Part shown: piece after piece, positions 1,425-19,699 of the stretch | Layout: the number at the start of each line of letters is the position of its first letter | Numbering within the stretch: the stretch's first letter is position 1 | Assembly (NCBI GenBank): GCA_964404275.1 | Contig: CAYOJH010000005.1 | Location: forward strand, 4,471 to 68,470 | Direction of reading: 5' to 3' | Length of the DNA stretch: 64,000 bases | Source: an uncultured Gammaproteobacteria bacterium | GTDB taxonomy: Bacteria; Patescibacteriota; Patescibacteriia; SG8-24; DYFX01 | Position numbers and translations under genes: made by a program | Notes under the pieces: model-generated | Told to the model about the DNA's origin: nothing | The model's input: the letters and a program-made list of their open reading frames with translations, nothing else | Database searches by the model: none

Positions 1425-1458
1425 AGTACGATTTGGTCGGAGACAGCATACTCCCGCT

Positions 1459-2800: not shown

Positions 2801-2826
2801 AAAAAATCCGCTCAGGCGGATTTTTC
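2801..2826. terminator. Bidirectional rho-independent terminator between convergent genes (PEGA protein / HAD hydrolase)
   Basis: AAAAAATCCGC-TCAG-GCGGATTTTT: 6-bp GC-rich stem flanked by A-tract and T-tract; overlaps stop of minus-strand gene. Confidence 0.7.
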
Positions 2827-3522
2827 CAATTCGGCGAGAAATTCCGGAAGACGATTGACGTTTTCGAGGCGATGATATTTCGTCGCGTCGACCTCCGCTT
2901 TGGCGTAGGCCCAGGTCTCGCTGGGCACGTGCACGGCGGTCATGCCGAGCTCGACGGCAGGCAGGATGTCGGACCTCAGCGAGTCGCCGACCATCGCGAC
3001 GTTCGACGGATCCTCGCCGATCAAGGAAGCCAGGTAGGGCTTCTTGTCGAGGAGCGTAACGTGGACGTCATGGAAGAGCGTGCCGAGGCCGGATTCGTTG
3101 ATCTTGCGCCATTGCAAACCCGGGGATCCGGCCGTCACCAGGCACACGCGCCGACGGTCCGACAGCCGACGGATCATCTTCGGCACGCCGCGCAACGGCG
3201 TGAAAGGCCCGCGGGCGTATCGCGCGCCGGTCGAAAGCAGCCTGCGGACGACCTTGGAATTGACGCGCCGCTTGGCGCGCTCGCACAAGCGCTCGTAGGT
3301 CAAGACCCAGCTCTGCGGCACGCGATCGGCCGTGAGGCCTTTCTCACCGACCATGCCGAGATCGATCTCGGTACGAAGCTCGAGCAGCTTGATCGGCTGG
3401 ATCCCATGGCGGCCGAGCGCTTCCGCGACGATGGCGGCGCACTTCAGGTTGGGCACGAAGTACTTGTGCGTGTTGGGCAAGAGCGTGTCGTCGAGGTCCA
3501 GGCAGACCGTATGGATTTTCAC
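2812..3522 (-). CDS. HAD-superfamily hydrolase (phosphatase-like)
   Basis: N-terminal DxD motif (VCLDLDDTLL), C-terminal motif (MVGDSLRSDI); last gene of long minus-strand sugar operon. Confidence 0.7.
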   Translation of the reverse strand: MKIHTVCLDLDDTLLPNTHKYFVPNLKCAAIVAEALGRHGIQPIKLLELRTEIDLGMVGEKGLTADRVPQSWVLTYERLCERAKRRVNSKVVRRLLSTGARYARGPFTPLRGVPKMIRRLSDRRRVCLVTAGSPGLQWRKINESGLGTLFHDVHVTLLDKKPYLASLIGEDPSNVAMVGDSLRSDILPAVELGMTAVHVPSETWAYAKAEVDATKYHRLENVNRLPEFLAELEKSA

Positions 3523-3546
3523 GTTCAGACTCCTTCTCGAAAAGAG

Positions 3547-4626
3547 CTAGATTTCGACGGTCGCGTTGTCGCCGACGATCAGCTTGTGACCGAGCGGCAG
3601 CGTGGCGTGCGCAGAGGTGACCGTCGCGTTCGCGCCGATCAGGCTGTCGACGATGCGCTTCGAGCAGTTGATGTCGACGTCGTCGAAGACGATGGAATGC
3701 TCGATTTCGGTGTTGTAGATTTCGACGCCGTTGCCGATCGAGGTGTAGGGGCCGATGTAGGAATTCTCGATCCGGCAGTTCTCGCCGATCGCGACCGGTC
3801 CGCGGATCAGCACTTTCGGACCGATTGCCGCGCCCTTGCCGATCGAAACCTTGCCCTGAATGACGGCGGTCGGATCCACCTCGGCGCCGGCGCGGCCTTC
3901 GTCCGCCATTTCGTTCAAGAGCAACTGGTTGCCTTCGAGCAGATCTTCCGGTTTGCCGGTGTCCTTCCACCAACCGGTGATCTCTTCGTACCCGACGGCT
4001 TTGCCGTTTTCGATCAGCCAGGTGTGGATGTCGGAAATTTCATATTCGCCGCGCTCCGACGGCTTGATGTGCGCGAAGGCCTCGAAGAAATTCTTGTCAT
4101 AGACGTAGATGCCCGTGACCGCGTAATCGCTTTTCGGTTCGGACGGTTTTTCGTCGACGCGCATGATGCGTCCGTTCTCGATTTGCGGAACGCCGAAACG
4201 CTGCGGGTCTTTCACCTTCGAAAGCGCGAGGACGCAGTTCAATTTTTCTTTTTCGAATTTTTCGACGAAGCGTTGGAGGCTGCCGAGGATGATGTTGTCG
4301 CCGAGATAAAAGATGAACGGCTCGACGCCCAGAAAATCTTTGGCGTTGTTGACGACATGCGCGATGCCGAGCGGTCCGCCCTGCTGTTCGATATACGTGA
4401 TGCGCACGCCCCAGCGCGAACCGTCGCCGACGGCCTTCTGCAGTTCCGTTTCGCCCGGGTTCATGCTGATGCCGATCTCTTTCACGCCGACCGCGGCCAA
4501 TTTCTCGATCGCGTAAAAGATCATCGGCTTATTCGCCAACGGGATCAGGTGCTTGTTGATCGTATAGGTGATGGGCCGAAGGCGCGTCGCCCGTCCGCCC
4601 GCCGTGATCAAGGCCTTCATAGTCAC
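3547..4626 (-). CDS. Long-form sugar-1-phosphate nucleotidyltransferase (glucose-1-phosphate thymidylyltransferase-like, RmlA-type N-domain plus left-handed beta-helix C-domain)
   Basis: N-terminal GGRATRLRPITYTINKHLIPLANKPMIFY signature of G1P thymidylyl/uridylyltransferases; C-terminal hexapeptide-repeat region (VSIGKGAAIGPKVLIRGPVAIGENCRIENSYIG). Confidence 0.8.
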   Translation of the reverse strand: MTMKALITAGGRATRLRPITYTINKHLIPLANKPMIFYAIEKLAAVGVKEIGISMNPGETELQKAVGDGSRWGVRITYIEQQGGPLGIAHVVNNAKDFLGVEPFIFYLGDNIILGSLQRFVEKFEKEKLNCVLALSKVKDPQRFGVPQIENGRIMRVDEKPSEPKSDYAVTGIYVYDKNFFEAFAHIKPSERGEYEISDIHTWLIENGKAVGYEEITGWWKDTGKPEDLLEGNQLLLNEMADEGRAGAEVDPTAVIQGKVSIGKGAAIGPKVLIRGPVAIGENCRIENSYIGPYTSIGNGVEIYNTEIEHSIVFDDVDINCSKRIVDSLIGANATVTSAHATLPLGHKLIVGDNATVEI

Positions 4627-4679
4627 TACTCAGGCTAGCAAAAAACCCCTTGAAGATCAAGGGGTTCGGGCGGCGGACG

Positions 4680-5093
4680 TCAGTAACAGCCGCACGGCTT
4701 TTCGAGGGCGGATTCGCCAACGACGTAGAGGGTCGAGGCGATCGAGAGGAGTACCGCGCTCGGACTGAGGCGGGCTCGATGCCAGACGCCGTTCGGGATC
4801 AGTACTCCGACGCCCGGCGACTCCAGCCTGAGACGACCGCAGGCTTCGGCGGCGTGCAGATCGAACTCGATCTCGCCGGAGATCGCCACGATCAGCTCGC
4901 GCTTGCCGCCGACGGGGTGCACGTGCCCGCCCCGTTCGACCCAGTCGGACGTCGTATTGGAGATCCAATAGATCCGCGGCGCGGCCTCGTTCGGAAAGAA
5001 TTCCGGAGCGATGATCCCAAGCTCCGCGATGACCATCAGGCCGGGCTTGGAGCGACTGAACGGCAGGTCAACCCGTTTCCACGGGTAACTCAC
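4680..5093 (-). CDS. WxcM/FdtA-like cupin (dTDP-4-keto-6-deoxyhexose 3,4-isomerase-like)
   Basis: Conserved RGGHVH...GVLIPNGVWH...LSIASTLY pattern typical of WxcM-like/FdtA cupins; GTG start at 5093 preceded by GGAGGAG; start overlaps stop of upstream small ORF (GTGA). Confidence 0.6.
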   Translation of the reverse strand: MSYPWKRVDLPFSRSKPGLMVIAELGIIAPEFFPNEAAPRIYWISNTTSDWVERGGHVHPVGGKRELIVAISGEIEFDLHAAEACGRLRLESPGVGVLIPNGVWHRARLSPSAVLLSIASTLYVVGESALEKPCGCY

Positions 5094-5272
5094 GCGCTCC
5101 TCCGATCGGCATCGGCCTGCCCGTCTTTTCTCAGCGCCGTGTCTGCCCAGAGCACCAGGCCGAAGACCGCGGCGATCACGGCGAAATTCGCCAAGGTGAC
5201 CCAGGGGCCGACGAGCTCGCACATGAGCATGAACGCGACGATCTGGAACGCGAGACAGGACCGAATGGTCAT
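5090..5272 (-). CDS. Small hydrophobic membrane protein (about 60 aa), hypothetical
   Basis: MTIRSCLAFQIVAFMLMCELVGPWVTLANFAVIAAVFGLVLW...: two predicted TM segments; stop overlaps start of next gene; no clear SD. Confidence 0.3.
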   Translation of the reverse strand: MTIRSCLAFQIVAFMLMCELVGPWVTLANFAVIAAVFGLVLWADTALRKDGQADADRRSA

Positions 5273-5359
5273 AAAAATGGGCTCGCTTTCTTCTCCGCCG
5301 CCAGGCGGAGGGACGCCCAGGACCCTAACAAAAAAGCCCGTTCCCGTCAAGGGGTCGGG

Positions 5360-6010
5360 CTAGCGCTTGGCGACGAACGCGTAGCGCTCGCCGAGGCGCT
5401 GAACGAAGTCCGCGTGGCGCTGGTGATCGTAGGTTTCGGCGTGGATGCCGAGCGCTCGGGCCGCTTCGGCGAACTCCTCGTGATCGTCGACGAAGAGCGT
5501 CCGGCGCGGATCCGTTTCCGCCAGCTCCAGCGCGCGGACGAAGAAGCGCGGGTCCGGCTTCGCGCAGCCGACTTGATACGACAAGCAGTGCGCGTTGAAG
5601 CCCCCGAGCACGCCCAGGCGGAGCAGCTCCTGATGCCGCAGCTCGTCGATATTCGAAGCCGTCACCAGCCGCACGCCCTTGAGGCTCAGCGCTTCCCAAA
5701 GCTTGAGGATCGGCTGATGGGGCGTGAAGACGTTCGTCATGGCGCGGTGGAAGGCGGCGTCGGTGCAGGTGAGCTGCAGCAGCCCCTTCGCGAAGCGGGT
5801 GAACTGCGCCGTCGTGCGCTCTCCGCGCATGTAGGCGTCCCATTGATCGCGATGATGCACGAACAGCATGTCGTGCAGGCCCTTCTCGTTGTAATACGAA
5901 GAGTGCTGCAGGAGCGCGGCGCTGGTCCGGCGGTTGTCGAACAGGACGGCGACCTTTCCGAGGTCGGAAAGGACCGCTTCGATCTCGTATTTCGTTCCCG
6001 ATGCGTGCAA
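5360..6010 (-). CDS. HAD-like hydrolase (variant motif I)
   Basis: C-terminal HAD motif (TLFVDDHEEFAEAARALG); N-terminal VLSDLGKV resembles DxDGT with second Asp replaced; TTG start with GAGGAG RBS 7 nt upstream. Confidence 0.55.
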   Translation of the reverse strand: MHASGTKYEIEAVLSDLGKVAVLFDNRRTSAALLQHSSYYNEKGLHDMLFVHHRDQWDAYMRGERTTAQFTRFAKGLLQLTCTDAAFHRAMTNVFTPHQPILKLWEALSLKGVRLVTASNIDELRHQELLRLGVLGGFNAHCLSYQVGCAKPDPRFFVRALELAETDPRRTLFVDDHEEFAEAARALGIHAETYDHQRHADFVQRLGERYAFVAKR

Positions 6011-6031
6011 GGTGCGTCTCCTCTGGAAGGG

Positions 6032-6952
6032 TTATCCGACCAAAGCCAATTTTTCGCGCGTTTCTTCCTCCGTCTTGCGGAGCGTCGCGTCGGCTTCGCC
6101 GGAAGAAAGATTTTGCTTGAGCGCGGCCAAAATGTCAACCAGCCGTTCTTCGATCGGCCGCATCGTGATGCCTTCGCGCTCGAGCTTGGCGATCGAAAGG
6201 ACGCAGTCGATGCGCTGCGCGAGCGTCATGCGGTTCAGCTCTTCTTTGGAAATCTTGGAGAAGGACATTTCCGGCTTGAGATGCGCCTTCAGCAATTCGG
6301 CGATGCGGTACGGCGTGGTCACGCCCGGATTCGCGACGTTATACAAGCCCGTCGCGTCCTTGGCGACGAGCGCCAAGGTCACGTCCATCAAATCCTCGAC
6401 GATCGTGCAGGAGTTCGCGGTGTCGATGAATTTCGCGTAGGTCAACATCTTCACGAGCGCGTTGCGCGGGCTGACCATGCCGGACAAGAGCTGGCGCGGA
6501 CGGAGCATCAGGACCTTAAGGCGTCCCCGATGGGCGCGCTCCGACAGCAGATTCTCGGCCCAGACTTTCGTCCACGAGTAATAGCAGAGCGGATGCGGCG
6601 CGTCTTCTTCCGTATGGACGACCTCGGCCGTCTTGCTTTCCTGCACGCAGCCGCTCGAAATATGCAAAAGGTAGACGCCGCGCTCTTCGGCGACTTTGGC
6701 GATCACGTCGGAGCCCAGCGTGTTGATCTGGAAGGCTTCCGTTTTGTTCATCTCGCACCAGTCGATGTTCGTCTTGGCCGCGGCGTTGATGATCAGGTCC
6801 GGCTGGGCGGCGGAGACCGCGCCGGAAACAAACGCTTCGTCGCGAATGTCGCCCTTCGGCGATTCGACGGCGCAGCCTTTCGACGTGAAGAAATCCCGGT
6901 AGAAGGTGCCGAGCTGCCCGCGGCCGAAGATCAAAACTTTGGAAGGCATCAT
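6032..6952 (-). CDS. dTDP-4-dehydro-6-deoxyhexose reductase (RmlD-like NAD(P)-dependent reductase)
   Basis: VLIFGRGQLG Rossmann N-terminus and overall RmlD/RfbD-like organisation; start overlaps rmlB stop by 4 nt. Confidence 0.75.
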   Translation of the reverse strand: MMPSKVLIFGRGQLGTFYRDFFTSKGCAVESPKGDIRDEAFVSGAVSAAQPDLIINAAAKTNIDWCEMNKTEAFQINTLGSDVIAKVAEERGVYLLHISSGCVQESKTAEVVHTEEDAPHPLCYYSWTKVWAENLLSERAHRGRLKVLMLRPRQLLSGMVSPRNALVKMLTYAKFIDTANSCTIVEDLMDVTLALVAKDATGLYNVANPGVTTPYRIAELLKAHLKPEMSFSKISKEELNRMTLAQRIDCVLSIAKLEREGITMRPIEERLVDILAALKQNLSSGEADATLRKTEEETREKLALVG

Positions 6953-7974
6953 ACGGTTTCTTTCAAGGTTTCCTTATAATACGCGTCGTAGTATTTCTGA
7001 TACTCTCCGCTCTTCACGCGCGTCCACCATTCGGGATGGTCGCGATACCAGAGGATCGTGGCCCGGATGCCGTGGTCAAAGAGGATCTTCGGTTCCCAGC
7101 CGAGCTCGTTCCGCATCTTGGAGGAATCGATGAAATAGCGGCGATCGTGCCCCGGGCGATCCGGCACGTAGCTCTTGAGCGATTCCGGCTTGCCGAGCGT
7201 CGTCAAAATGAGATCCGTGATTTCCTCGATCGATTTCTCGACGCCGGTGCCGATGTTGTAGACCTCGCCGATCTTGCCGTTACGCAAAATCAGATCGACG
7301 GCGGAGCTGTGATCGTCCGCGTGAATCCACTCGCGCGTGTTTTTGCTGCTCTTGAAGAGCGGCAGCGGCTTGTCTTCCATCGCGTTGGTCGCGAACAGCG
7401 GGATCAACTTTTCCGGAAACTGATGCGGGCCGTAGTTGTTGCAGCAGCGGCTAATCGTGACCTTCATGCCAAACGAATGCGCATAGGACATCACGACATG
7501 ATCGGAGCTGGCCTTCGAAGCGGCGTAGGCCGAGCGCGGATGCAGCATGTCGGTTTCCTTGAAAGCGCGATCTTCATCGAGCGCGAGATCGCCGTAGACT
7601 TCGTCGGTCGAGACGTGGTGGAAACGCGTCACGCCGGCTTGGCGGCAGGCTTCAAGCAGCACTTGCGTGCCGAGGACGTTGTTGCGGAAAAAGGCGTGCG
7701 GATCGAGCACGGAGCGATCGACGTGCGATTCGGCGGCGAAGTGCACGACGGCATGAACGCCCTCAAGCGCCCGAGTAACATCGGCCGCGACGCAGATGTC
7801 GCCTTTGACGAACCGATACCGCGGGTTCGCTTCCACGTCCTTCAAATTTTCAAGATTCCCGGCATACGTCAACGCGTCGAAATTGACCACCTCGTCTTCC
7901 GGGCGGTTTTCGAGCACGTAACGGATGTAGGCGGAGCCGATGAAACCGGCGCCGCCAGTCACGAGAATCCTCAT
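6949..7974 (-). CDS. rmlB: dTDP-glucose 4,6-dehydratase (RmlB/RfbB)
   Basis: MRILVTGGAGFIGS...YxxxK (YAASKASSD)...full-length match to dTDP-glucose 4,6-dehydratases including C-terminal ILWYRDHPEWW. Confidence 0.9.
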   Translation of the reverse strand: MRILVTGGAGFIGSAYIRYVLENRPEDEVVNFDALTYAGNLENLKDVEANPRYRFVKGDICVAADVTRALEGVHAVVHFAAESHVDRSVLDPHAFFRNNVLGTQVLLEACRQAGVTRFHHVSTDEVYGDLALDEDRAFKETDMLHPRSAYAASKASSDHVVMSYAHSFGMKVTISRCCNNYGPHQFPEKLIPLFATNAMEDKPLPLFKSSKNTREWIHADDHSSAVDLILRNGKIGEVYNIGTGVEKSIEEITDLILTTLGKPESLKSYVPDRPGHDRRYFIDSSKMRNELGWEPKILFDHGIRATILWYRDHPEWWTRVKSGEYQKYYDAYYKETLKETV

Positions 7975-7983
7975 AGATTCAGG

Positions 7984-8400
7984 CTAGGCTAGCACTGCGC
8001 GGAGCTTTTGTCCAACCTCCTCCATCTCCCCTTCCGCGTACGGCCGGCCGTGCCAATGCTCGTGGCCGTCGCCTTCGAAACGCGGGATGACGTGGAGGTG
8101 CAGGTGATCGACGAGCTGTCCGGCCGCGCGGCCATTGTTCACGCCGATGTTGAAGGCCGGGGCTCCGAGCGCAGACATCAGGGCCTTGCCCATTTTTTGT
8201 CCGACCTGCGCGATCGCGGAGAGCGTCGCCTCGTCAGCCGAGGCGTAATCGGCGAAGTGCGCCTTCGGCACGACCAAGAGATGGCCTGGGTTGATCGGCT
8301 TGATGTCGACGAAGGCGAGCGTCGCGTCGTCTTCATAGACGACGGTTGCCGGAATTTCCTTGCGGACGATTTTGCAGAAGAGGCAGTCAGTCATAATCAT
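7984..8400 (-). CDS. HIT-family (histidine triad) nucleotide hydrolase/transferase
   Basis: CLFCKI...HLHLHVIPR histidine triad motif; 138 aa. Confidence 0.85.
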   Translation of the reverse strand: MIMTDCLFCKIVRKEIPATVVYEDDATLAFVDIKPINPGHLLVVPKAHFADYASADEATLSAIAQVGQKMGKALMSALGAPAFNIGVNNGRAAGQLVDHLHLHVIPRFEGDGHEHWHGRPYAEGEMEEVGQKLRAVLA

Positions 8401-8780
8401 TCATGAGGCGAGAAGACGGGCCAGGCGATCAGCATCGCGAGCAGGATACCCCCGGAAGCGGCGGCGCGCCAGAAGAACTTCACGTCAGCCGGGATCAGGA
8501 ACCAGGCGGCGACCCCGAGGCTCAGGCAACCGAGATACAGGAGCGAACGCGCGGCGCGCGGAGAGCGGTGCGAGGCGTCATCGGGCGACAAGCGCGACTG
8601 CGTGGCCATGGCGGCGACCGAGGCCGCCAGTACGAACACGAGCAGCCAGAGCAGATTGAAGAAGCGCGAAACGAAGCCGGCCGAAGCGGCTTCCAGGCCG
8701 AGGCAGAGCACGAACAGGACCGTGCCGGCGGCCCAGGCGTCGATCGCCATCTGATGGAGAACGGATCGCGGCGTCTTCAT
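8397..8780 (-). CDS. Small polytopic membrane protein, hypothetical
   Basis: Four hydrophobic segments; 4-nt overlaps with both neighbours indicating co-translation in operon. Confidence 0.5.
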   Translation of the reverse strand: MKTPRSVLHQMAIDAWAAGTVLFVLCLGLEAASAGFVSRFFNLLWLLVFVLAASVAAMATQSRLSPDDASHRSPRAARSLLYLGCLSLGVAAWFLIPADVKFFWRAAASGGILLAMLIAWPVFSPHE

Positions 8781-9967
8781 AATTTTTTCTTGAGCTGATC
8801 GAGCAGGTTTCTGAAATCGATCGGCGGACGCAGGTAATCGACGCGCACGGAATCGACACGCACCGTGCCGCCGACGGTCTTGATGGCCGGCAGCGACAAC
8901 AGCATCTGCGTGTGGCCCTGCGAGGCGGCCATCTCGCGCAGGCTGAATTCCGCTTCGGCCGTGCGCCAGCCGTCCGCGTCGATCGTCGGCGGATGGTAAC
9001 GCGCCACGACCGCATCATACGGCGCGGTCTTGAGATCGGTCAGCGCGTTGATCGTCGGGAATTCTGGATCGAAGCTCGTCGCGCCCTCCGGCACGTAGAC
9101 GTGCTGGCCTTCGGTGTCAAGCAGCACGATCCGGCTCTGGCGGGATTCGATGCCGACCAAGGAAACGTCGTCGGGCGCGTCGATCCGGAGGCGGTACAAT
9201 CCCGGCTTCGCGCCGGTCAGCGCCATCTCGACCGCGCCGTCGCCGCGGTGCGTGCGCGCGAGCAGCGTTTCGCCGTCGCGTTCCAGCGCGATCTTGGCTT
9301 CTTCTTTATCGGATCCGCGCAAGCCGAGCGAGAGTTCGAACGGACCTTTCTGGACGTAGACGTAGAGCGTGCGCGCGCCCGGTTCGTTCAGCACGGCATC
9401 AACGGGCTTCTCGCCGGAAAGCGCAGGCAAACGCAGATTCCAACGCACGGGATCGAGGCCGAGCACCGCTACGCGTCCGCCGGACGCCAAAATCTGCTGC
9501 GCCGAGCGCGTCGTCGCTTTGCGTTCGTAGACGCGAAGCTCCCCGTCTTGCCGCGCGGACCAGCCCGCGTCATCCAAGAGCGGGAGATCGAGTGGCTTCA
9601 GATCGAACTGCCATTGATCGAGGTCCGTGCGCGCGCCGAGCGCGATGTACGGCTGTTTCTCTTCCTTGTATCGCAACTGCACGCGCACCGTATCGTAAAA
9701 ACGCGGCGCGGCCAGATTGAAGTAGACCGGTTCATCGACGATGTCTGAGTACCAGACGCCGTTTTCCTGGACCGGCTTGGCGCGATCCTGCGGCGTGAAG
9801 CCGCCGATGAAACCGTTCGGCTCAGCCGTCCGAGCCTGGGCGCTCAAGACGCCGGTCAGCGGGAAGTTGCGCCAGAAAATCCAGGCGAGAAAAGCCGCGC
9901 CGAGCACGAACCAGGCGAACCGCAGCACATGGCGGAGGAATCGGAGTTGGGGCAGCGCGCTACTCAT
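8777..9967 (-). CDS. N-terminally anchored extracytoplasmic hypothetical protein (396 aa) coupled to GT-C transferase
   Basis: Single N-terminal TM (FAWFVLGAAFLAWIFW) then soluble domain; 8-nt overlap with upstream GT-C gene. Confidence 0.5.
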   Translation of the reverse strand: MSSALPQLRFLRHVLRFAWFVLGAAFLAWIFWRNFPLTGVLSAQARTAEPNGFIGGFTPQDRAKPVQENGVWYSDIVDEPVYFNLAAPRFYDTVRVQLRYKEEKQPYIALGARTDLDQWQFDLKPLDLPLLDDAGWSARQDGELRVYERKATTRSAQQILASGGRVAVLGLDPVRWNLRLPALSGEKPVDAVLNEPGARTLYVYVQKGPFELSLGLRGSDKEEAKIALERDGETLLARTHRGDGAVEMALTGAKPGLYRLRIDAPDDVSLVGIESRQSRIVLLDTEGQHVYVPEGATSFDPEFPTINALTDLKTAPYDAVVARYHPPTIDADGWRTAEAEFSLREMAASQGHTQMLLSLPAIKTVGGTVRVDSVRVDYLRPPIDFRNLLDQLKKKL

Positions 9968-12076: not shown

Positions 12077-12096
12077 TCCTGTGCTACAATCAAGGC

Positions 12097-14223
12097 ATGA
12101 AACCGCTTCATTCTACCATTTTGGCTTCGGTTGGAGGAGCCCTGGCGGCCCTGGGCCTGGCCTCGCCGGCCTTCGCCTTGCTCCTGCCGATCGGAGGGAC
12201 CCTGTTCCTGGCCGGAATGGCGGAAACCGCCGGAAAGCTGGCGTTCCCCGAGGAACGCTCGCCGATCCGCGGCTTGTTCGGGCTTCTCGGAGCCCTGGCG
12301 TTGATTTCGACGGCCGGCGCGATCGTCTATTACTTCTCCAAGCTCGATACGGTCGGCCTTTCCTGGCTGTGCGTCACGCTGCCCTGGGCGCTGTTCGCCG
12401 TCTCGCCGTTCGGCGCGCGCGTGCGCGAACATGTCGAGAAACCGACCTTGATCGTTGAAAAATCTTCGCCGGAAGATTCCCTTTCGGGCGTGCTCCTGCT
12501 CATCGCCGTCGCCGCCGATCTGGCCGCGCTGCGCTGGTTGTGGGGCGCCCGCACGGCCGAGGCCATCCGCTCCCCATGGGAAGTCGTCTCGCCGCTGTAT
12601 TTCCTGTGGATCGGCCTGGCGGCCTTCTGCCTGATCGCGCTCGCCTACCGCCGGCGCTTTCCGCACCTGACCTTGGCCGCCGCGTCGCTGCATCTCTTCG
12701 CGATGCTCGCGCCCGCCGCCTTGGTCTATGCCGTCGGATTCGGATTCGATCCGTTCGTGCATCAAGCCGCCGAGAAGCTCGTTTTCGCCGCGGGCGTCGT
12801 GACGCCGAAGACGCCGTACTACATCGGGCAGTACGCGCTGGTGACGGTCCTGACCAAGCTGTTCCGTTTGCCGATCGTGGCCGTCGATCGGTTCTTGCTG
12901 CCGACCTTGACCGCGCTTTTCCTGCCGGCCGCCGCGGCTTGGCTCCTGCGCCGCGGCTACGGCGTGCCGCGCGCGCTCGCTTTGGTCGCTTCCCTCGGCA
13001 TTTTTCTTTTGCCGCTCAGCGCCTTCGCTTCGACGACGCCGCAAGGCCTGGCCGATCTTTTTTTTCTGCTGACGATGCTGCTCGGCGCGGCTTGGCTCCA
13101 CGGGCACCGTCCCCCGCTCGGTTTCGTGTTACTGCTCGCCTTCGCGGCCGCCGCCACGCATCCGCTCTCTGGCGTGCCCGCGCTCATGGCCGCGGTCCTG
13201 CTCATGATCGCCAAGCTGCGCCATGACGGGCTGCCGGCGGCCAGGATCGCCAAGACCGTCGCTTTCGGCCTGGCCATCGGAATGGCGGCCGTGGCCATCC
13301 CGTTCGTTTTCGCCGTCCGCGAAGGCTCGGGCGTCGCGCCGCTCGTTTCGGCGTTCCACAAACCGATCGCGGAACTGCTGCTTGGCATCCCGTTCGAAGC
13401 GCCCGGCCTCGCCTCGCGCTACCGGCCGATCCTCGACTTCGCCGAATTCCTGGCGCGCAATCAAGACGCGTTCTTGTTCCTCTTGGCCGGCGCGGGCGCT
13501 TGGCTCCTCTTGCGGCGCAGAGGCTACCGCCGTTCGGCGCTCGCCGCGGGCGGACTTTCCATCGCCTTGCTGATCTCCGTCGCGATCCTCCGCAGCAGTT
13601 TCGTTTTCAAAGACGTGATCGGCTACGAGCAGGCCAACTACGCCGATCGCTTGTACGACGCCGCGCTCTTGTCGCTCGCCCCGTTGGTCTTGGCCGGCGT
13701 GGCCTGGTGGTGGCGCGCGCTGTCCAAGGCGGAGCACGGAGTGCGCATGCTGCACGCGCTGCTCTTCGCCGCCGCCATCTCCGCGCTCGCCTACGCCGCC
13801 TTCCCGCGTCTCGACGACTACCGCTTCAGCCGCGGCTACTCGGCCTCGATCCATGACGTCCGCGCCGTCGACTGGATCAACGCGCACGGCGTCGCGCCCT
13901 ACGTCGTCCTCGCGAACCAATCGACCTCGGCCGCCGCGCTTTCGGAATTCGGCTTCAAAACGTATTACGGCTCGCAATTTTATTACGCGATCCCGACCGG
14001 CGCGCCGCTGTATCAGTCGTATCTCGAGATGGTCTACGGCGGCGCCAAGCGCGAGACGATGGAAGCGGCCATGCGCGAGATGCAGGTGCCGACCGCCTAC
14101 TTCGTGATCGACAGCTATTGGACGAACGCTTCAAGCGTCATCGCGGCGGCGAAAAAAACCGCCGATGACTGGCAGGACATCGACGGCGGACAAGCCATGA
14201 TTTTCCGCTACGCGCTCAAGTAG
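12097..14223 (+). CDS. Large polytopic membrane protein (708 aa) with C-terminal soluble domain; possible second GT-C-like transferase
   Basis: At least 12 hydrophobic helices followed by ~170-aa hydrophilic C-terminal domain; architecture reminiscent of GT-C enzymes; no motif proof. ATG only 20 nt from divergent start at 12076. Confidence 0.5.
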   Translation: MKPLHSTILASVGGALAALGLASPAFALLLPIGGTLFLAGMAETAGKLAFPEERSPIRGLFGLLGALALISTAGAIVYYFSKLDTVGLSWLCVTLPWALFAVSPFGARVREHVEKPTLIVEKSSPEDSLSGVLLLIAVAADLAALRWLWGARTAEAIRSPWEVVSPLYFLWIGLAAFCLIALAYRRRFPHLTLAAASLHLFAMLAPAALVYAVGFGFDPFVHQAAEKLVFAAGVVTPKTPYYIGQYALVTVLTKLFRLPIVAVDRFLLPTLTALFLPAAAAWLLRRGYGVPRALALVASLGIFLLPLSAFASTTPQGLADLFFLLTMLLGAAWLHGHRPPLGFVLLLAFAAAATHPLSGVPALMAAVLLMIAKLRHDGLPAARIAKTVAFGLAIGMAAVAIPFVFAVREGSGVAPLVSAFHKPIAELLLGIPFEAPGLASRYRPILDFAEFLARNQDAFLFLLAGAGAWLLLRRRGYRRSALAAGGLSIALLISVAILRSSFVFKDVIGYEQANYADRLYDAALLSLAPLVLAGVAWWWRALSKAEHGVRMLHALLFAAAISALAYAAFPRLDDYRFSRGYSASIHDVRAVDWINAHGVAPYVVLANQSTSAAALSEFGFKTYYGSQFYYAIPTGAPLYQSYLEMVYGGAKRETMEAAMREMQVPTAYFVIDSYWTNASSVIAAAKKTADDWQDIDGGQAMIFRYALK

Positions 14224-15490
14224 GTTGCGGTTGATAGCGGATCGGCACGATCGGGCCGCGCTCTTCGAGCGCCGGGTCGCGGCCGTCGTAAAGCGCTTCC
14301 AGGCGCGCGGCGTGCCGCGAAACGGATAGCAGTTCGGCGGAACGCGACGCTTCGCGCGAGCGTTCGGGCCAGGCGCCGCCCTCGTCGCAGACGCGCTTCA
14401 TGACGGCCACCAGCGCGGCGACGTTTCCCGCTTCGAAGACGAAGCCGTTCTCTCCGTGGCGGACGATCTCGGCCGCGCCGCCGATGTCGGCGACCGCGAC
14501 GGGAACGCCGTAGGCGAAACTTTCGCCGATCACGGTTGGCGCGTTCTCATAGCACAACGACGGCACGACGGTGCAATCCGTTTTCGAGAAGAGCTCGGCG
14601 AACTGGACCGGACGTTTTTTTCCGTAAAAGGCGATGCGCAGATCCTTGCCGGAGGCGCGCAGCGCTTCCTCCAACGCGGAACCCGCGCCGACGACGTCGA
14701 GGCGCGTTTTCGGACGATCTTTGAGAAGCCGTCGGAACGCTTCGATCAGCAAAAGGATGCCTTTGTGCCTTTCGACCTGCCCGATGAACAAGAAACGCGT
14801 TTCCGCCGTTCCGCCTCCGCCAAGGCTTCGGCGGACAGGCATGGCGTGCGGCGCGGGATTCGGCAAGATGACATGCTGCGCGTTCGGAAAAAAGCCGCGT
14901 TCCAGGTGAAACCGCATCAGGAAGCGCGAGGGCGAGATGACGATGTCCGGCGAGGCGAAACTCGTTCGCGCGAACGAAGCGAACATCCGGCTGATCGGAT
15001 CCGTCACGCCGAAACCGCGCTCTTTCCCCTTGAGGATCAAGCCGGACGGCGCGACGAGCTGCACGTCATGGAGCGTGTGGACGTGGCGGATGCCGAGCGT
15101 GCGCAACACCCTCGGCACGCGCCAGCCGAGGCCTTTCAGATTGTGCGTATGGACGATCTGCGGCCGTTCTTTTTTCAAAATGCCGGCGAGCGTTTTTGCC
15201 GCGTGGCCGTTCCAAGCGTCGAACAGGTGCCAGAGGAAGCGCGAAGCCGCCGCGTGCTTGCCGATCTCGCCGTAGAAAAAAAGATTGAACGGGTAAAAGC
15301 GATGGACCCGGATGCCGTCCTCGACGGTCATCTTCGGCTCGATCGATCCGTCTTCCCGCACGGGTTCCGCCGTCACGATCGAAACGTCGTGGCCCATCGC
15401 CTTCAAGGCGCGGGCTTCTTCCTCGACGACGCGTTCGGCGCCGCCTCGGCTGTACGGCGGATACAAATTGGTAATAAAACACACGCGCAT
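14216..15490 (-). CDS. GT4-family glycosyltransferase
   Basis: N-terminal MRVCFITNLYPPYSRGGAE and C-terminal E-x7-E region (GESFAYGVPVAVADIGGAAEIV); alternative TTG start at 15508. Confidence 0.8.
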   Translation of the reverse strand: MRVCFITNLYPPYSRGGAERVVEEEARALKAMGHDVSIVTAEPVREDGSIEPKMTVEDGIRVHRFYPFNLFFYGEIGKHAAASRFLWHLFDAWNGHAAKTLAGILKKERPQIVHTHNLKGLGWRVPRVLRTLGIRHVHTLHDVQLVAPSGLILKGKERGFGVTDPISRMFASFARTSFASPDIVISPSRFLMRFHLERGFFPNAQHVILPNPAPHAMPVRRSLGGGGTAETRFLFIGQVERHKGILLLIEAFRRLLKDRPKTRLDVVGAGSALEEALRASGKDLRIAFYGKKRPVQFAELFSKTDCTVVPSLCYENAPTVIGESFAYGVPVAVADIGGAAEIVRHGENGFVFEAGNVAALVAVMKRVCDEGGAWPERSREASRSAELLSVSRHAARLEALYDGRDPALEERGPIVPIRYQPQPT

Positions 15491-15509
15491 GCCATAAAAG
15501 TATAGCAAC

Positions 15510-16571
15510 TTATCCGCAAACCGTCTCGACGACGGTCTGATCGATCACTTTTGCGTCATACACGCGTTCGGCTCTGCCACGGGCCGCGCGGCCCATGGCG
15601 GCGGCGCGGTCTGGATCGGAAAGCAGCGTCTGGAGCGCATCGGCCAACGCTTCGACGTTCAACGGCGGCACGACCAGTCCCGTGACGCCGGGTTCGACAA
15701 GGCTGCGGACGCCGGGCAGATCCGAAACGATCGAGGGAACGCCGCTCGCCGCCGCCGCCAGCGTGACGAGGCCGAAGGCTTCCGAACGGTCGACGGAAGG
15801 CAGGACGTGGATCAAAGCTTCGCGATACAGCTCGGCCAGACGTTCGTCGGAGACGCGGCCGTGGAAACGGATGTGTCCCGCAAAGCCGGTCTTGGCCGCC
15901 AAGGTTTCATACGACGCGCGCAGATTACCGTCGCCGACGATCCAGAGTTCCGTTTCGGGCGCGTTCGCGGCGATTTTCGCGAACGCTTCAATCAGCATCG
16001 GCACGCCTTTGAAATAATGCGCGGCATCCAAACCTCCGACGAAGAGAATCGCGTTTTTCTTTTCTCCGCCCGGACGGAAGAAGTTCGTATCGACGCCGAG
16101 CGGGATCTCGCGGACGCGCGGATCGTTTTTCAAAAAAGCGATCTGCGACGAGGCGAAATACTCGCGGCTCGTGACGATGATCGCGTCCGCCGCGCGCAGG
16201 ATCGCTTTCAAGAAGAACGCGCGGTACAGAGAGAAGATCCGGGCCGCGAAACCTTTCCCGACCGTGTCCATGTGATACAGGACCGTCAGGCGCGTACGAC
16301 GGCCGAACGTCTTTTTCCAAAGCCAGACCCATTCCGCGCCGCCGAAGAACGGATAGTGCAGCTCGGCCGCGTCGAAGCCGCGCAGCTTCCAGAGCAACCC
16401 TGGAACGCAGGCGGCGTTGCCGATTTTGAAAAGCGGGTGCAGTCCCTGTCCGGGCGCGAACACGGCCGCGTCATGTCCCGCGCGCCGAAAAGCCGCCGCG
16501 TGATCCGCGGCCACGTTGCCCATGCCGCCTTTGTAAGGCGGAAACGTCGAAACGACGACGGCGACTTTCAT
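15510..16571 (-). CDS. GT4-family glycosyltransferase
   Basis: MKVAVVVSTFPPYKGG N-terminus, C-terminal SEAFGLVTLAAAASGVPSIVSD GT1/GT4 signature; internal Met start (track ORF has 79 extra codons overlapping upstream gene). Confidence 0.8.
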   Translation of the reverse strand: MKVAVVVSTFPPYKGGMGNVAADHAAAFRRAGHDAAVFAPGQGLHPLFKIGNAACVPGLLWKLRGFDAAELHYPFFGGAEWVWLWKKTFGRRTRLTVLYHMDTVGKGFAARIFSLYRAFFLKAILRAADAIIVTSREYFASSQIAFLKNDPRVREIPLGVDTNFFRPGGEKKNAILFVGGLDAAHYFKGVPMLIEAFAKIAANAPETELWIVGDGNLRASYETLAAKTGFAGHIRFHGRVSDERLAELYREALIHVLPSVDRSEAFGLVTLAAAASGVPSIVSDLPGVRSLVEPGVTGLVVPPLNVEALADALQTLLSDPDRAAAMGRAARGRAERVYDAKVIDQTVVETVCG

Positions 16572-16573
16572 AG

Positions 16574-17677
16574 CTACCACCACAGGATCAGCCGCGCGAC
16601 CGCCCAGTAGGCGGCGAACAGCGGGTTGGCGACGCGCGTCAGGAGCGAGGGCTGCATCTGCTGGAACAGGATCCTTCCGGTGAACAGGCGCGTGGCTTCC
16701 CGATCCGAAATCTTCCTGAGCCCCACCATGCGGACATGGGCCTCGCGCAGCTTCCGCAAATGTTCCCAAGAAAAGAAATACGCGTAGGCCCGGGCCTTTT
16801 CGCGCCACCAGCCGCTCTTGAAGGCGAAGAGCCAGAGGCCGATTTCCATCGTGATGAATGCCGGAGCGATCAGCAGGTGCGTCGGCCAGCGGTACATGCG
16901 GGTCAACACGATCAAACGATTGCGCTCCATCCAGAAATATTTCTTGATGCTGCGCGAAAATTCGTATTTGTGGAAGACGACCGAATCCGGCGCGAGGACC
17001 ACGCGGTGTCCCGATAGGCGCGCACGCCAGGAATATTCCAGGTCTTCGTGATAGGCGAAAAGTTCCTCGTCGAGAAAACCGATCTCGCGCAGCAGCGACG
17101 CGCGGATCAGCATGCCGGCGCCGCTGGCGTAGGCGATGTCGCGCATTTTCAATTTCGCCTGCACGGACGGGTCGGAGACCGGCAGCGACTCCCCTCCCGC
17201 GTAGCCGAAGCCGAGGAAATGAATTTCGTTGCCATAGGAATTGACCAGCTCGGTGCGCGGATGCAGCCGCAGGAAACTTTGGACGACGCCGATCTTCGGA
17301 TCGGAAGCCATCGTCCGCATCGCCGCTTCAAGAAAACCCGGCTGCGCTTCGGTGTCCGGATTGAGCAGGTACACGTACGCGTAGCCCTCTTCCAACGCTT
17401 TCCGCATCGCTTGATTGTTGCCGCCGGAAAAACCGAGGTTCTCGCTGTTTTTGAAAAAGACGCACGGAAATCCGCCCTTCGTCGTTTTCTGATCCGGCGA
17501 AAGCAGTTCGCGCGCGATGAATTCGCCGCTGCCGTCGGGCGAAGCGTTGTCGACGATCATCAAGGTCGCCGCGCCCGGCGCGATGCCGGCCTGTTCGACC
17601 GCGCGGAAACACGCGCCGAGAAATTTTCCGTGATTCCAAGAAACGACGATGATCGCCGTCCGCGCGTCAGGCGTCAT
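16574..17677 (-). CDS. GT2-family glycosyltransferase (GT-A fold, WbbL/rhamnosyltransferase-like)
   Basis: IVVSWNHGKFL...MIVDNASPDGS...DEELFAYHEDLEY motifs typical of GT2. Confidence 0.8.
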   Translation of the reverse strand: MTPDARTAIIVVSWNHGKFLGACFRAVEQAGIAPGAATLMIVDNASPDGSGEFIARELLSPDQKTTKGGFPCVFFKNSENLGFSGGNNQAMRKALEEGYAYVYLLNPDTEAQPGFLEAAMRTMASDPKIGVVQSFLRLHPRTELVNSYGNEIHFLGFGYAGGESLPVSDPSVQAKLKMRDIAYASGAGMLIRASLLREIGFLDEELFAYHEDLEYSWRARLSGHRVVLAPDSVVFHKYEFSRSIKKYFWMERNRLIVLTRMYRWPTHLLIAPAFITMEIGLWLFAFKSGWWREKARAYAYFFSWEHLRKLREAHVRMVGLRKISDREATRLFTGRILFQQMQPSLLTRVANPLFAAYWAVARLILWW

Positions 17678-18011
17678 GCGAGCGGTCTTCCAGTTCCTTG
17701 AGCGCGAGTTCGCGCGCCAGGCGCGTGAGTTTCTGCTCGTGATCTTCGAGCCGCGCGAACATCCGGAACAGGAGATAAAAAGCGGAAACCAGCGCCAGGT
17801 AGACGACGACGTCCGCGCCGCGGCCGACGCCGAGGCGATGCGCGAGCGATGACGCGACGTCCGGCTTCAAAGCGACCCCGGCGACGCCCAGCCAGAGCAG
17901 CGTCCAGAGCACGAGCTGTTTGAACGAAAGGCCGCCGCGCCGGAAACGCGAAACGGCCGCGGCGAAGCCGAAGCCGGCGAAAGCGAGCAAAACGAGCTGG
18001 ATGATGCTCAT
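17667..18011 (-). CDS. DUF2304-like small membrane protein (GT2-associated)
   Basis: ~114 aa, two N-terminal TM helices plus C-terminal coiled segment; typical position next to polyprenyl-phosphate GT2 genes. Confidence 0.55.
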   Translation of the reverse strand: MSIIQLVLLAFAGFGFAAAVSRFRRGGLSFKQLVLWTLLWLGVAGVALKPDVASSLAHRLGVGRGADVVVYLALVSAFYLLFRMFARLEDHEQKLTRLARELALKELEDRSHDA

Positions 18012-18014
18012 AGA

Positions 18015-18689
18015 TCAATCGAGGAAACGGCGCAGGATCAATTTCAAAGCGGTCTCGATGCCGACGGCCAGGTTTTGGCCTTTCGACAGCGAATAATCGG
18101 TGTAGACGGCTTCGATCGGCACTTCGGCGAGACGGAAGCGCTTGTCGGCGATCTCTTTGACGAACTCCGAAGAGACTTCCATGCGCGAGGTGCGGAGCGT
18201 CAGCCGCTCGGCGGCGTGGCGCGCCATGCCGCGCAGGCCGCTCTGGCTGTCGGTCACCCATTTGCCGAAGAGCGCATAGGTCAGCGCGTTGCCGAACCAT
18301 TGAGCCAGGCGCCGCGCGACGGGCATGTTCCCCTTCCCCTCGAGCATGCGCGAGCCGATCACGAAATCAACGTCGCCTTCGGACAGGCGCTCGAAAATCC
18401 GTTTGGCGTCCTCCGCGCGATGCTGTCCGTCGGCGTCCATCGTGACGATCTGATCCGCGCCGAGCCGGAGCGCGCCGGCGATGCCGGTGCCGATCGCGCC
18501 GCCCAAGCCGCGATTGACCGCGTGCCGCGCCACCAAGGCGCCGGCGGCCGAAGCGATCTCGGCCGTGCGGTCGGAGGACCCGTCATCCACCACCAAGACG
18601 ACGTCCGCGATGGCATGCGCCGCGCGCACGACTTCGCCGATCGCCCGTTCCTCCTGGTAGGCCGGAATGACGATGATCCGTTTTTCCAT
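18015..18689 (-). CDS. GT2 polyprenyl-phosphate glycosyltransferase (DPM1/ArnC-like)
   Basis: VIPAYQEE...VVDDGSSDRT...MDADGQH...DVDFVIGSR...SGLRGM motifs of dolichyl/undecaprenyl-phosphate sugar synthases. Confidence 0.8.
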   Translation of the reverse strand: MEKRIIVIPAYQEERAIGEVVRAAHAIADVVLVVDDGSSDRTAEIASAAGALVARHAVNRGLGGAIGTGIAGALRLGADQIVTMDADGQHRAEDAKRIFERLSEGDVDFVIGSRMLEGKGNMPVARRLAQWFGNALTYALFGKWVTDSQSGLRGMARHAAERLTLRTSRMEVSSEFVKEIADKRFRLAEVPIEAVYTDYSLSKGQNLAVGIETALKLILRRFLD

Positions 18690-18691
18690 GC

Positions 18692-19699
18692 TTACACGTT
18701 GCGCGCGAGACCTTTCGTCACGAGCGTGTATTCGATCGTGCGCTTTAGGCCGTCGTCCAGACGGACGAGCGCGATCCAGCCGAGCTCGTCGACGGCTTTG
18801 CGCGTGTCGGGCAGGCCGAGCGGCGTCATGAACAGGAGCGGCGCTTCGAATTTCACTTCCGATTTGGAGTTCGTCATGGCGATGACCTTGCGGGCCACGT
18901 CGGCCAGCTTGAGATCCGCGTCGCCGCCGAAGTTGACCGGCCCCGGATTCTTGGAGACGCGCATCAAACGGACCAGGCCGTCGACCAGGTCGGTGACATA
19001 GAGAAGCACCGTGCTGAAATCCTCGTCGCCGTAAATGACGAGGTCGCGACCTTCGAGCGCGTCGAGCACGAAGTCCGGCACCATCTCGCCGTCGTTCAGG
19101 CGCTGGCGCGGGCCATAGGTGCGGAAGATGCGGGCCACGCGGACGTCGAGGCCGAAGACCGAGGCGTAGGTGTAGCAGGCGGTTTCGGCGAAGCGTTTGC
19201 CTTCGTCGTAGCAGGCGCGCGGCGAAGCATGATTCGTGACGCCCATGTCCGTCTCCTTGAATTTGCTGCCGTCGGCGTGGCGCGGGCCATAGACGACGGA
19301 GGTCGAGCCGTGCAGGAAGCGCGCCTTGTATTTGACCGCCAGCTCGAGCACGTTGCGCATGCCCAGCGAATTCGCCAGGAACGTCTGGATGCGGAGATTA
19401 TCGAATTTCTTGGCCGAGGTCGGGCAAGCCAGGTGGTAAATCTCATGGACGCCGTGCACGTCCAATTTGAAGCGCGCCAGTTCCGGAAACGCTTCCGGAT
19501 CGAACGGCTCGTTGATGTCGTGCTTCAGGAACTCGAAATCCGGGTTCTTGAGCATCGTTTCGATGTTCGCGACCTCGGACGTGATGAAATTGTCGATGCA
19601 GATGACCTGCTGGCCGTCGGCCAGGAGGCGTTCGCAGAGGTGCGAGCCGATGAAGCCGGCTCCGCCGGTGACGATCGCGATGCGCTTTTCTTCTGCCAT
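18692..19699 (-). CDS. UDP-glucuronate decarboxylase (UDP-xylose synthase)-like NAD-dependent epimerase/dehydratase
   Basis: IVTGGAGFIGSHLCERLL...IDNFITS...YDEGKR...RIFRTYGPR pattern closely resembling UXS/ArnA-decarboxylase family. Confidence 0.8.
   Translation of the reverse strand: MAEEKRIAIVTGGAGFIGSHLCERLLADGQQVICIDNFITSEVANIETMLKNPDFEFLKHDINEPFDPEAFPELARFKLDVHGVHEIYHLACPTSAKKFDNLRIQTFLANSLGMRNVLELAVKYKARFLHGSTSVVYGPRHADGSKFKETDMGVTNHASPRACYDEGKRFAETACYTYASVFGLDVRVARIFRTYGPRQRLNDGEMVPDFVLDALEGRDLVIYGDEDFSTVLLYVTDLVDGLVRLMRVSKNPGPVNFGGDADLKLADVARKVIAMTNSKSEVKFEAPLLFMTPLGLPDTRKAVDELGWIALVRLDDGLKRTIEYTLVTKGLARNV

Follow-up and report, generated by a model that had tools for sequence, protein, structure and literature searches.

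What is made by the glycosyltransferases (GTs) that lie next to a large Ser/Thr-rich surface protein in a Patescibacterium? The window analysed here, 64,000 nucleotides (nt) of contig CAYOJH010000005.1 (assembly GCA_964404275.1), contains a cluster of nucleotide-sugar enzymes, GTs and polytopic membrane proteins. An earlier sequence-only reading had seen a lipid-linked toolkit in which a xylose-type lipid donor feeds GT-C enzymes, with the adjacent surface protein as a plausible O-glycosylation substrate. We favour, with moderate confidence, another explanation, in which the cluster would be a conserved Patescibacteria envelope-glycan locus resembling GacI/GacJ/GacL of streptococci and PpgS/Rv3632/Rv3779 of mycobacteria, with two GT-Cs and a non-protein acceptor. 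The window has a G+C content of 63%, and the nearest relatives of its proteins are found in metagenome-assembled genomes (MAGs) of Patescibacteria (Candidate Phyla Radiation, CPR), including the complete 1.17-Mb chromosome CP129476.1.

Open reading frames (ORFs) were chosen by their third-position GC, which is high throughout the named genes, and annotated by Pfam and NCBIfam scans. Two gene trains on the minus strand make up the cluster. One runs from 25187 down to 14216 and has eight genes, encoding the Ser/Thr-rich surface protein, an S8 subtilase, a short-chain dehydrogenase/reductase (SDR) related to UDP-xylose synthase (UXS), a short GT2, a DUF2304 protein, a second GT2 and two GT4s. The other, from 12076 down to 2812, has 11 genes, encoding a CDP-alcohol phosphatidyltransferase, a GT-C protein of 517 amino acids (aa), a 396-aa protein, a 127-aa protein, a HIT protein, RmlB, an RmlD-like reductase, a HAD hydrolase, an FdtA-like cupin, RmlA and a second HAD hydrolase. 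The gene for a 708-aa membrane protein (12097-14223) is the only one between the trains and lies on the plus strand.

Most junctions in both trains are ATGA-type overlaps or gaps of 1–3 nt. Such overlaps link the CDP-alcohol phosphatidyltransferase, 517-aa GT-C, 396-aa, 127-aa and HIT genes and also RmlB to the RmlD-like gene (the gap between HIT and RmlB is 9 nt), while the six genes from the SDR to the second GT4 are joined by overlaps or gaps of 1–3 nt. The description of two tightly packed minus-strand operons is borne out by this spacing, and every ORF in the earlier gene list was found at its coordinates. That list lacked RmlA, RmlB, the RmlD-like reductase, the FdtA-like cupin, the HIT protein and the two HAD hydrolases of the same operons, as well as the 396-aa single-pass and 127-aa four-helix membrane proteins. 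Scans for promoters and terminators gave nothing above shuffled expectation.

The short GT2 (224 aa, 18015..18689, minus strand) is a predicted polyprenyl-phosphate glycosyltransferase of the GacI/PpgS/DPM1 type. It matches PF00535 (77.5 bits), has the motifs VVDDGS and MDADGQ, the latter containing a DxD, and lacks a transmembrane (TM) helix. The best PDB matches were ArnC and Dol-P-Man synthase, and AglJ was also matched. PpgS (NF058614) is the best NCBIfam match, over the full length and with 178.9 bits against an equivalog cut-off of 370, and by this score the protein is best described as a relative of PpgS and not as PpgS itself. Gaps of 2–3 nt separate its gene from each neighbour. The neighbour at a distance of 3 nt (17667..18011, minus strand) encodes a 114-aa DUF2304 membrane protein (PF10066, 87.8 bits against a cut-off of 25.5) with three hydrophobic helices, a putative GT2 activator of the GacJ/Rv3632 type.

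In both GacI/GacJ of Streptococcus pyogenes and PpgS/Rv3632 of M. tuberculosis the GT2 is stimulated by its small partner, after which a GT-C, GacL in the case of S. pyogenes, transfers the polyprenyl-phosphate-bound sugar to a wall polysaccharide or polyrhamnose (bioRxiv 10.1101/180810). The assignment of a DPM1/ArnC-type GT2 with its DUF2304 partner is supported by these matches. By analogy with the two characterised architectures it is also well supported that a lipid-phosphate-sugar would be made inside the cell and used by a GT-C outside.

The 517-aa protein (9960..11513, minus strand) did not itself give a Pfam (E ≤ 0.01), NCBIfam or PDB sequence match. Its 164 detectable homologues all come from Patescibacteria-type sources, and 20 of the 29 that were sampled match PF13231 (PMT_2; best E 3e-11). 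Residues P33-D34-E35 are invariant in 29 sequences of the family and follow directly on the first TM helix, the position at which GT-C enzymes bear their acidic catalytic motif. An AlphaFold model built on the homologue alignment (pLDDT 89.2, pTM 0.90) was compared with the PDB using Foldseek, and the top 26 matches were all GT-C enzymes (probability ≥0.92, and 1.00 for the first 23; TM-scores ≈0.5), with AglB, STT3, ALG9, ArnT, PglB, Pmt4, ALG3 and EmbC among the proteins matched. The protein is therefore described here as PMT_2/ArnT-like, from the PF13231 matches of its homologues and its predicted fold. The earlier label GT39 is too specific and was rejected, as PMT_2-clan similarity (seen only in the homologues) and the GT-C fold are what the data support. 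PMT_2 also covers ArnT-like enzymes, and a match to it does not imply GT39.

The gene for the 708-aa polytopic protein (12097..14223, plus strand) begins exactly 20 nt from the divergent CDP-alcohol phosphatidyltransferase gene, as the sequence-only reading had it. No consistent Pfam, NCBIfam or PDB sequence match was obtained for the protein and 67 diverse members, none of the 72 first-round homologues showed a Pfam domain, and nothing in the PDB was matched by two different profiles of the family. Taken over both membrane-protein families, PDB profile searches were run with three alignments and none matched. Since the direct sequence and profile searches were empty, the two GT-C assignments rest on the Pfam matches of homologues and on predicted folds. 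The model of the 708-aa protein (pLDDT 90.9) has mycobacterial AftA (PDB 8IF8) as its best Foldseek match (E 4e-5, TM-scores 0.41/0.46), followed by STT3, AglB, ArnT, AftD and EmbC, and all non-GT-C matches have a probability below 0.15. A profile-profile comparison with the 517-aa family gave 74% probability over 314 columns. D218 and H222 (in GFGFDPFxH) are invariant in the 708-aa family, and their loop is predicted to face outward by the positive-inside rule (RRRF on the preceding loop).

Shared with the solved enzymes AftA, ArnT, STT3/AglB/PglB, AftD and EmbC are the predicted fold, a conserved acidic residue in an outward loop and a C-terminal soluble domain. Unlike them, the 708-aa family has no detectable sequence similarity to a solved GT-C, and TM-scores are only 0.4–0.55; ahead of its conserved loop the 708-aa protein also carries some six additional helices at the N-terminus. 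A profile search of 1.84 billion representatives (E ≤ 1e-3) placed 1574 clusters at 50% identity in this family, and at least 553 loci occur in species-representative genomes. No bridge to a known GT-C was seen among the matches listed (the best 150, all full-length members). The 708-aa protein thus belongs to an uncurated, very large and Patescibacteria-wide GT-C-fold family, which is new at the family level and missed by current profile libraries. That both membrane proteins are GT-C enzymes, as first proposed, is shown by their predicted folds, and for the 517-aa protein also by its family; the profile searches proposed as a check gave PMT_2 for 20 of 29 homologues of 9960-11513 and no sequence-family match for 12097-14223. 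The AT skew across the divergent pair (window 10001-14000) is strong and of opposite sign, +0.275 and then −0.317, as would be expected if the two coding strands are both rich in T, as is typical for membrane proteins.

To investigate the conservation of the cluster, 80 species-level loci with the 708-aa gene at their centre were searched by tblastn with the window proteins, and only loci with enough flank were counted. In 58/65 loci the 708-aa gene has the 517-aa GT-C as its divergent neighbour. The other modules are seen in about half of the loci or fewer: the first GT4 in 34/67, DUF2304 in 27/56, the short GT2 in 26/53, the SDR in 27/53, RmlB in 27/51, S8 in 20/45 and the CDP-alcohol phosphatidyltransferase, between the two GT-C genes, in 18/65. 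Because of this difference the GT-C pair is the conserved core, and the other modules are its frequent companions. The short GT2 and DUF2304 co-occur (26–27 of 53–56 loci), and roughly every second locus has the complete set.

The conserved order is S8, SDR, GT2, DUF2304, GT2, GT4, GT4, the 708-aa gene on the opposite strand, CDP-alcohol phosphatidyltransferase, GT-C, a 396–515-aa protein, a small membrane protein, HIT/NUDIX, RmlB, RmlD and RmlA. It was found in full in CP129476.1 and in Uhrbacteria contigs, whose GT-Cs are 30–35% identical to those of the window. The loci belong to Uhr-, Falkow-, Buchanan-, Magasanik- and Komeilibacteria-type genomes. The arrangement is not due to chance, as the gene order recurs in distant relatives.

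A gene for a PEGA-domain protein and an EPSP-synthase-fold (MurA-type) gene (1459-2796, plus strand, and 159-1532, minus strand) flank the cluster. As PEGA-domain and MurA-type genes also flank it in CP129476.1, the conserved block reaches past its left edge at 2812 and is wider than 2812-19699. Many public MAG records with this Patescibacteria-type locus (L007, L008, L012, L025 and others) are titled "uncultured Gammaproteobacteria bacterium", a label that seems to be an artefact of the pipeline used for submission.

Which sugar would be loaded onto the lipid depends in part on the SDR (335 aa, 18692..19699, minus strand), an extended SDR and a presumed modifier of the UDP-sugar that feeds the GT2. 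Its best PDB relative is human UXS1 (2B69/4GLL), to which it is 41.8% identical along the full length (230 bits), while the next solved family gives 89 bits. The NAD site (TGGAGFIGS, GxxGxxG) is present and the equivalents of the Thr/Tyr/Lys triad T118, Y147 and K151 (UXS1 numbering) are conserved. In a residue-level alignment S119 and R144 are also kept, and the replacements A79T, Y84F, E120V, N176R and R277T are seen. Glu120 and Arg277, which define the UXS group, are reported to be invariant within it and replaced in the counterpart 4-epimerases, and the R277Q mutant of UXS halts at the UDP-4-keto-pentose (Eixelsberger et al., PMC3438964). A 2025 comparison likewise found Glu and Arg/Lys to be shared signatures of four UDP-glucuronic acid (UDP-GlcA) decarboxylases (PMC12820599). 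Among the decarboxylase signatures of that study (Table 3), the window SDR has Arg144 and Ser119, whereas Tyr84 is Phe and Asn176 is Arg.

With Val120 and Thr277 the window SDR lacks both residues that define the UXS group. All of the 120 nearest homologues have Val, Thr or Ile at position 120, Thr or Ser at position 277, and both Y84F and N176R; the A79T pattern is likewise subfamily-wide. The same residues are found in cluster-linked orthologues of distant relatives. The name "UXS-like" thus fits the overall sequence and not the residues that mark the group. The SDR belongs to a distinct UXS-derived subfamily with a remodelled active site, which is new at the family level. A true UXS making UDP-xylose was dropped as the default reading because the Glu120/Arg277 signature is absent, and we regard plain UDP-xylose synthesis by this enzyme as rather unlikely. 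Relatives of the SDR bear a Joint Genome Institute (JGI) label, UDP-glucuronate decarboxylase, and for the whole subfamily this is probably a systematic misannotation.

The idea of a pentose (xylose-type) donor is therefore weakened: the SDR lacks the UXS signature, UDP-glucose 6-dehydrogenase (Ugd) was not found among the ORFs scanned in the window and the nearest curated family of the GT2 makes polyprenyl-P-N-acetylgalactosamine (GalNAc). Nor would a pentose lipid donor feeding a GT-C be the unusual combination it was taken for, as ArnT and the mycobacterial Emb/Aft enzymes are GT-C enzymes that act on pentose lipid donors. The GT136 systems also combine the two (PMC11127046).

The train with the GT-C gene further contains a predicted dTDP-6-deoxyhexose route. 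RmlA, the long form of glucose-1-phosphate thymidylyltransferase (3547..4626, minus strand; TIGR01208, 417.7 bits, cut-off 320), and RmlB, dTDP-glucose 4,6-dehydratase (6949..7974, minus strand; TIGR01181, 436.9 bits, cut-off 365), both score above their cut-offs. The RmlD-like 4-keto reductase (6032..6952, minus strand; PF04321) reaches 103.7 bits with TIGR01214, under the cut-off of 224. No gene for canonical RmlC (PF00908) was found in the window; an FdtA/WxcM-like cupin (4680..5222, minus strand; PF05523, E 9e-12), an isomerase or epimerase of dTDP-4-keto-6-deoxyhexose, was the only candidate, and in the related locus L006 canonical RmlC takes its place. RmlA, RmlB, the reductase and the cupin would together make a complete route. 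Because a PF00908 gene is missing and the RmlD score is below the cut-off, the product may be another 6-deoxyhexose than L-rhamnose.

Three cytoplasmic Leloir transferases are encoded in the other train. The GT2 of 367 aa (16574..17677, minus strand; PF13641/PF00535) is weakly rhamnosyltransferase-like (TIGR01556, 47 bits, under the cut-off). It is followed by a 353-aa GT4 (15510..16571, minus strand; PF00534/PF13692), which truly starts with the ATG at position 16571, only 2 nt past the stop of the GT2, and not where a longer ORF begins, and by a 430-aa GT4 (14216..15508, minus strand; PF00534/PF13439), whose last 8 nt are shared with the end of the convergent 708-aa gene. A dTDP-6-deoxyhexose pathway and three Leloir transferases in one cluster imply a multi-sugar glycan, beyond one transferred sugar.

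The train with the GT-C gene also contains a PgsA-like CDP-alcohol phosphatidyltransferase of 188 aa (11510..12076, minus strand; PF01066, 96.3 bits), which scores 91.5 bits with the pgsA model TIGR00560, below the equivalog cut-off of 109.1. Its motif DxxDGxxARx8GxxxDxxxD is intact (D-LI-DG-SL-AR-TRGQITAW-G-TIW-D-PVA-D). The 138-aa HIT-family nucleotide hydrolase/transferase (7984..8400, minus strand; PF01230, 102 bits) is ATGA-coupled and present in 26/57 related loci, and a NUDIX gene occupies the same slot in Uhrbacteria L005 (5453-5983), which suggests a nucleotide or nucleotide-sugar hydrolase role within the pathway. The two HAD-family hydrolases lie at 5360..6010 (minus strand; PF00702/PF13419) and 2812..3522 (minus strand; PF00702).

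Two membrane proteins that gave no Pfam, NCBIfam or PDB match are encoded directly after the 517-aa GT-C. The 396-aa protein (8777..9967, minus strand), a putative GT-C partner, has a single TM helix at its N-terminus and lies for a large part outside the cytoplasm; its gene overlaps the GT-C stop by 8 nt. It was detected by tblastn in 24/59 loci, and its positional equivalents in relatives have 396–515 aa and one TM helix each. The 127-aa protein (8397..8780, minus strand) has four hydrophobic segments and shares a PGFVS/AR motif with its three- to four-helix positional equivalents in L003, L005 and L006. Its size and topology recall GtrA-type proteins, with no profile support, and it may be considered a candidate flippase for the lipid-linked sugar. 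The Gtr and GT136 pentofuranose systems follow the same three-component logic of lipid-linked donor synthase, flippase and GT-C (PMC11127046). The window differs from them in that no GtrA, MATE or Wzx flippase family was found, the 127-aa protein being the only candidate, and from GT136 in that the synthase is a GT2 and not a polyprenyl phosphoribose synthase dependent on phosphoribosyl pyrophosphate.

The protein that gave rise to the glycoprotein idea is a secreted, candidate S-layer-type surface protein of ≈1230 aa (1230–1261; 21495..25187, minus strand). No Pfam or NCBIfam match was found, and the PDB sequence search gave none. It has a signal peptide and 24.2% Ser+Thr, compared with 8–16% in neighbouring proteins. 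Ser/Thr-rich it is, but "extremely", the word first used, overstates this, as there are no low-complexity, mucin-like or Ser/Thr/Pro-rich linker tracts. The secreted S8 subtilase next to it (19747..21384, minus strand; PF00082) has a C-terminal domain of 147 aa, residues 393–539, that is 46% identical (E 4e-40) to residues 37–182 of the surface protein. The window holds these two copies of the domain (24633-25097 in the surface protein and 19774-20208 in the subtilase, both on the minus strand) and no more, and it has no Pfam match. In relatives, the domain is located in the S8 gene beside the cluster, and beyond that gene a surface-protein homologue was detected in 2/16 loci with enough room.

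In Firmicutes, S-layer proteins are paired with docking to secondary wall polymers. By analogy the shared domain may be a wall-polymer or cell-envelope docking module. Docking would offer an alternative reason for the position of the surface protein, with no need for its glycosylation.

How might these parts work together? In the explanation that we favour, RmlA, RmlB, the cupin and the RmlD-like reductase would make a rhamnose-type dTDP-6-deoxyhexose in the cytoplasm, and the 367-aa GT2 and two GT4s would assemble a lipid-linked glycan or a glycolipid from nucleotide sugars. The UXS-derived SDR would modify a UDP-sugar, which the DUF2304-activated short GT2 would load onto polyprenyl phosphate. 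The lipid-phosphate-sugar would then be flipped across the membrane, possibly by the 127-aa protein, and serve outside as donor for the divergent GT-C pair, one PMT_2/ArnT-like and one AftA-like. The likeliest acceptor would be a non-protein envelope polymer, a secondary wall polysaccharide or lipoglycan, which may anchor the surface protein and the subtilase through their shared domain. The gene identities, folds, operon packing and conservation described above are observed; the step from donor to GT-C we infer from the GacI/J/L and PpgS/Rv3632/Rv3779 systems.

The streptococcal Group A carbohydrate system shares with the window a short GT2 and three-helix DUF2304 protein that make the polyprenyl-P-sugar, a polytopic GT-C that uses it outside the membrane and clustering with dTDP-rhamnose genes and GT2/GT4 rhamnosyltransferase-type enzymes (bioRxiv 10.1101/180810). 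The window locus, in contrast, has two GT-Cs in a conserved divergent pair and a UXS-derived SDR directly upstream of the GT2; no Wzx (GacK), ABC exporter (GacD/E) or GacH-type enzyme was found in it, and the host is a Patescibacterium. A full match to a streptococcal-type cluster for rhamnose cell wall polysaccharide (Rha-CWPS) was rejected, as an ABC exporter, a GacO-type initiator and an LCP ligase were not found. The PpgS (Rv3631)/Rv3632/Rv3779 system, which adds galactosamine (GalN) to mycobacterial arabinogalactan, is similar in that PpgS is the best curated family of the window GT2, that DUF2304 adjoins it and that a GT-C is the last transferase to a wall polysaccharide. It differs in that the window GT2 reaches only 179 of the 370 bits of the cut-off and that there is no evidence for GalNAc.

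Several points weigh against this explanation. About half of the loci with a GT-C pair lack an adjacent GT2/DUF2304, and for this reason the donor may be made elsewhere. The pathway as we read it is incomplete, since the window yielded neither an initiating phosphoglycosyl transferase nor a Wzx/ABC exporter, an LCP ligase or a recognisable GtrA/MATE flippase; together with the lack of Ugd among the ORFs scanned in its 64 kb, this weakens every model. The sugar cannot be named, with an SDR that lacks the UXS signature and a GT2 below the PpgS cut-off, and the binding role of the 147-aa domain is purely our own conjecture. PMT_2-type enzymes include true protein O-mannosyltransferases, and a glycan and a protein acceptor are not separated by the present evidence. 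A more specific version, in which the GT-C pair assembles a lipoarabinomannan-like lipoglycan or wall polymer outside the cell, from a possibly undescribed lipid-linked sugar whose UDP precursor is a product of the remodelled SDR, and the polymer docks S-layer-type proteins via the 147-aa domain, is speculative and we consider it unlikely.

The same donor could also serve proteins. In this case one or both GT-Cs would O-glycosylate the adjacent surface protein, and perhaps the subtilase, from the GT2/DUF2304 lipid donor, much as in the actinobacterial Ppm1/Pmt O-mannosylation. The 517-aa homologues do match PMT_2 and Pmt4 is among the fold matches, but the best of these are oligosaccharyltransferase (OST), ALG9 and ArnT and not PMTs. 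The gene of the surface protein lies immediately upstream of the operon and shares its strand, and L006 and close relatives likewise have the order of cluster, S8 and large surface protein, yet the homologue past S8 was seen in only the 2 of 16 loci noted above. The Ser+Thr content of 24%, against about 10% in neighbouring proteins, fits a glycosylation substrate, while the missing linker tracts do not. A rhamnose-type pathway and three Leloir GTs would be superfluous for single-sugar O-glycosylation, and for O-glycan transfer a Wzy_C-like protein (33885-35432) is an alternative candidate. Both GT2+DUF2304+GT-C systems that have been characterised act on a polysaccharide acceptor (bioRxiv 10.1101/180810). 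The earlier claim of an O-glycosylation substrate has adjacency and Ser/Thr content as its sole evidence, and we regard protein O-glycosylation as possible but rather improbable.

A further possibility is a lipoglycan made in the manner of mycobacterial phosphatidylinositol mannosides (PIM), lipomannan (LM) and lipoarabinomannan (LAM). The PgsA-like enzyme would make a phospholipid anchor, the two GT4s would add the first sugars as PimA and PimB do, and after flipping the two GT-Cs would extend the chain from the polyprenyl-P-sugar like PimE, MptA/B and AftA-type enzymes. In LM/LAM synthesis the GT-C step depends on polyprenyl-P-mannose (PMC3485146). The roles match one to one for the CDP-alcohol phosphatidyltransferase, two GT4s, polyprenyl-P-sugar synthase and two GT-Cs; AftA is the best fold match of the 708-aa protein, and a polymer exporter is neither required nor seen. 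The CDP-alcohol phosphatidyltransferase gene is translationally coupled to the GT-C gene and lies between the GT-C genes in 18/65 loci, but it is missing from the locus in 72% of relatives and may be a housekeeping PgsA (91.5 bits). As the GT4s have no specific match to PimA-type models and the rhamnose-type pathway and extra GT2 find no place, we judge this route quite improbable. Still less probable is that there is no single product, and that separate envelope and housekeeping genes (PgsA, rhamnose, assorted GTs) are merely kept together by compaction in a 1-Mb genome. The near-universal GT-C pair, with other modules in about half of the loci or fewer, and promoter and terminator scans at shuffled expectation would agree with this, but stop and start codons overlap along unbroken runs of seven and of six genes, and the order is kept at 30–35% protein identity across several candidate phyla-level groups.

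Further along the window a second surface/glycan region was observed (27354-41000). It encodes a GHL15 + FG-GAP protein (27354-29591), a DUF11 protein (29588-31330), a further GT4 (31416-32615), a 515-aa membrane protein weakly similar to Wzy_C/O-antigen ligases (33885-35432), a collagen-repeat/DUF7151 protein (38923-39999) and a Wzz-like protein (40310-40954). For polymerising the glycan, or for transferring O-glycans to protein, the Wzy_C-like protein offers an alternative candidate. A 3-hydroxyacyl-CoA dehydrogenase (PF02737 and PF00725) is encoded at 59601-60548 on the minus strand; to our knowledge, Patescibacteria are generally thought to lack fatty-acid metabolism.

Three-component glycosylation systems are already known; what is novel here is the uncurated GT-C family and the UXS-derived SDR subfamily. 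In the literature that we searched, no paper linking Patescibacteria with GT-C enzymes was found. As far as we know, Patescibacteria cannot synthesise their own lipids, and their envelope is essentially uncharacterised. Little as is known of it, this envelope is where the tiny episymbionts meet their hosts, both to attach to them and to feed on them. The locus now names parts of it that can be tested, namely a GT2/DUF2304 donor synthase, two GT-Cs, whose candidate catalytic residues are D34/E35 and D218/H222, and a rhamnose-type pathway. It also flags a probably mislabelled UXS-like SDR subfamily, and it defines a large GT-C-fold family that has been overlooked by profile libraries.

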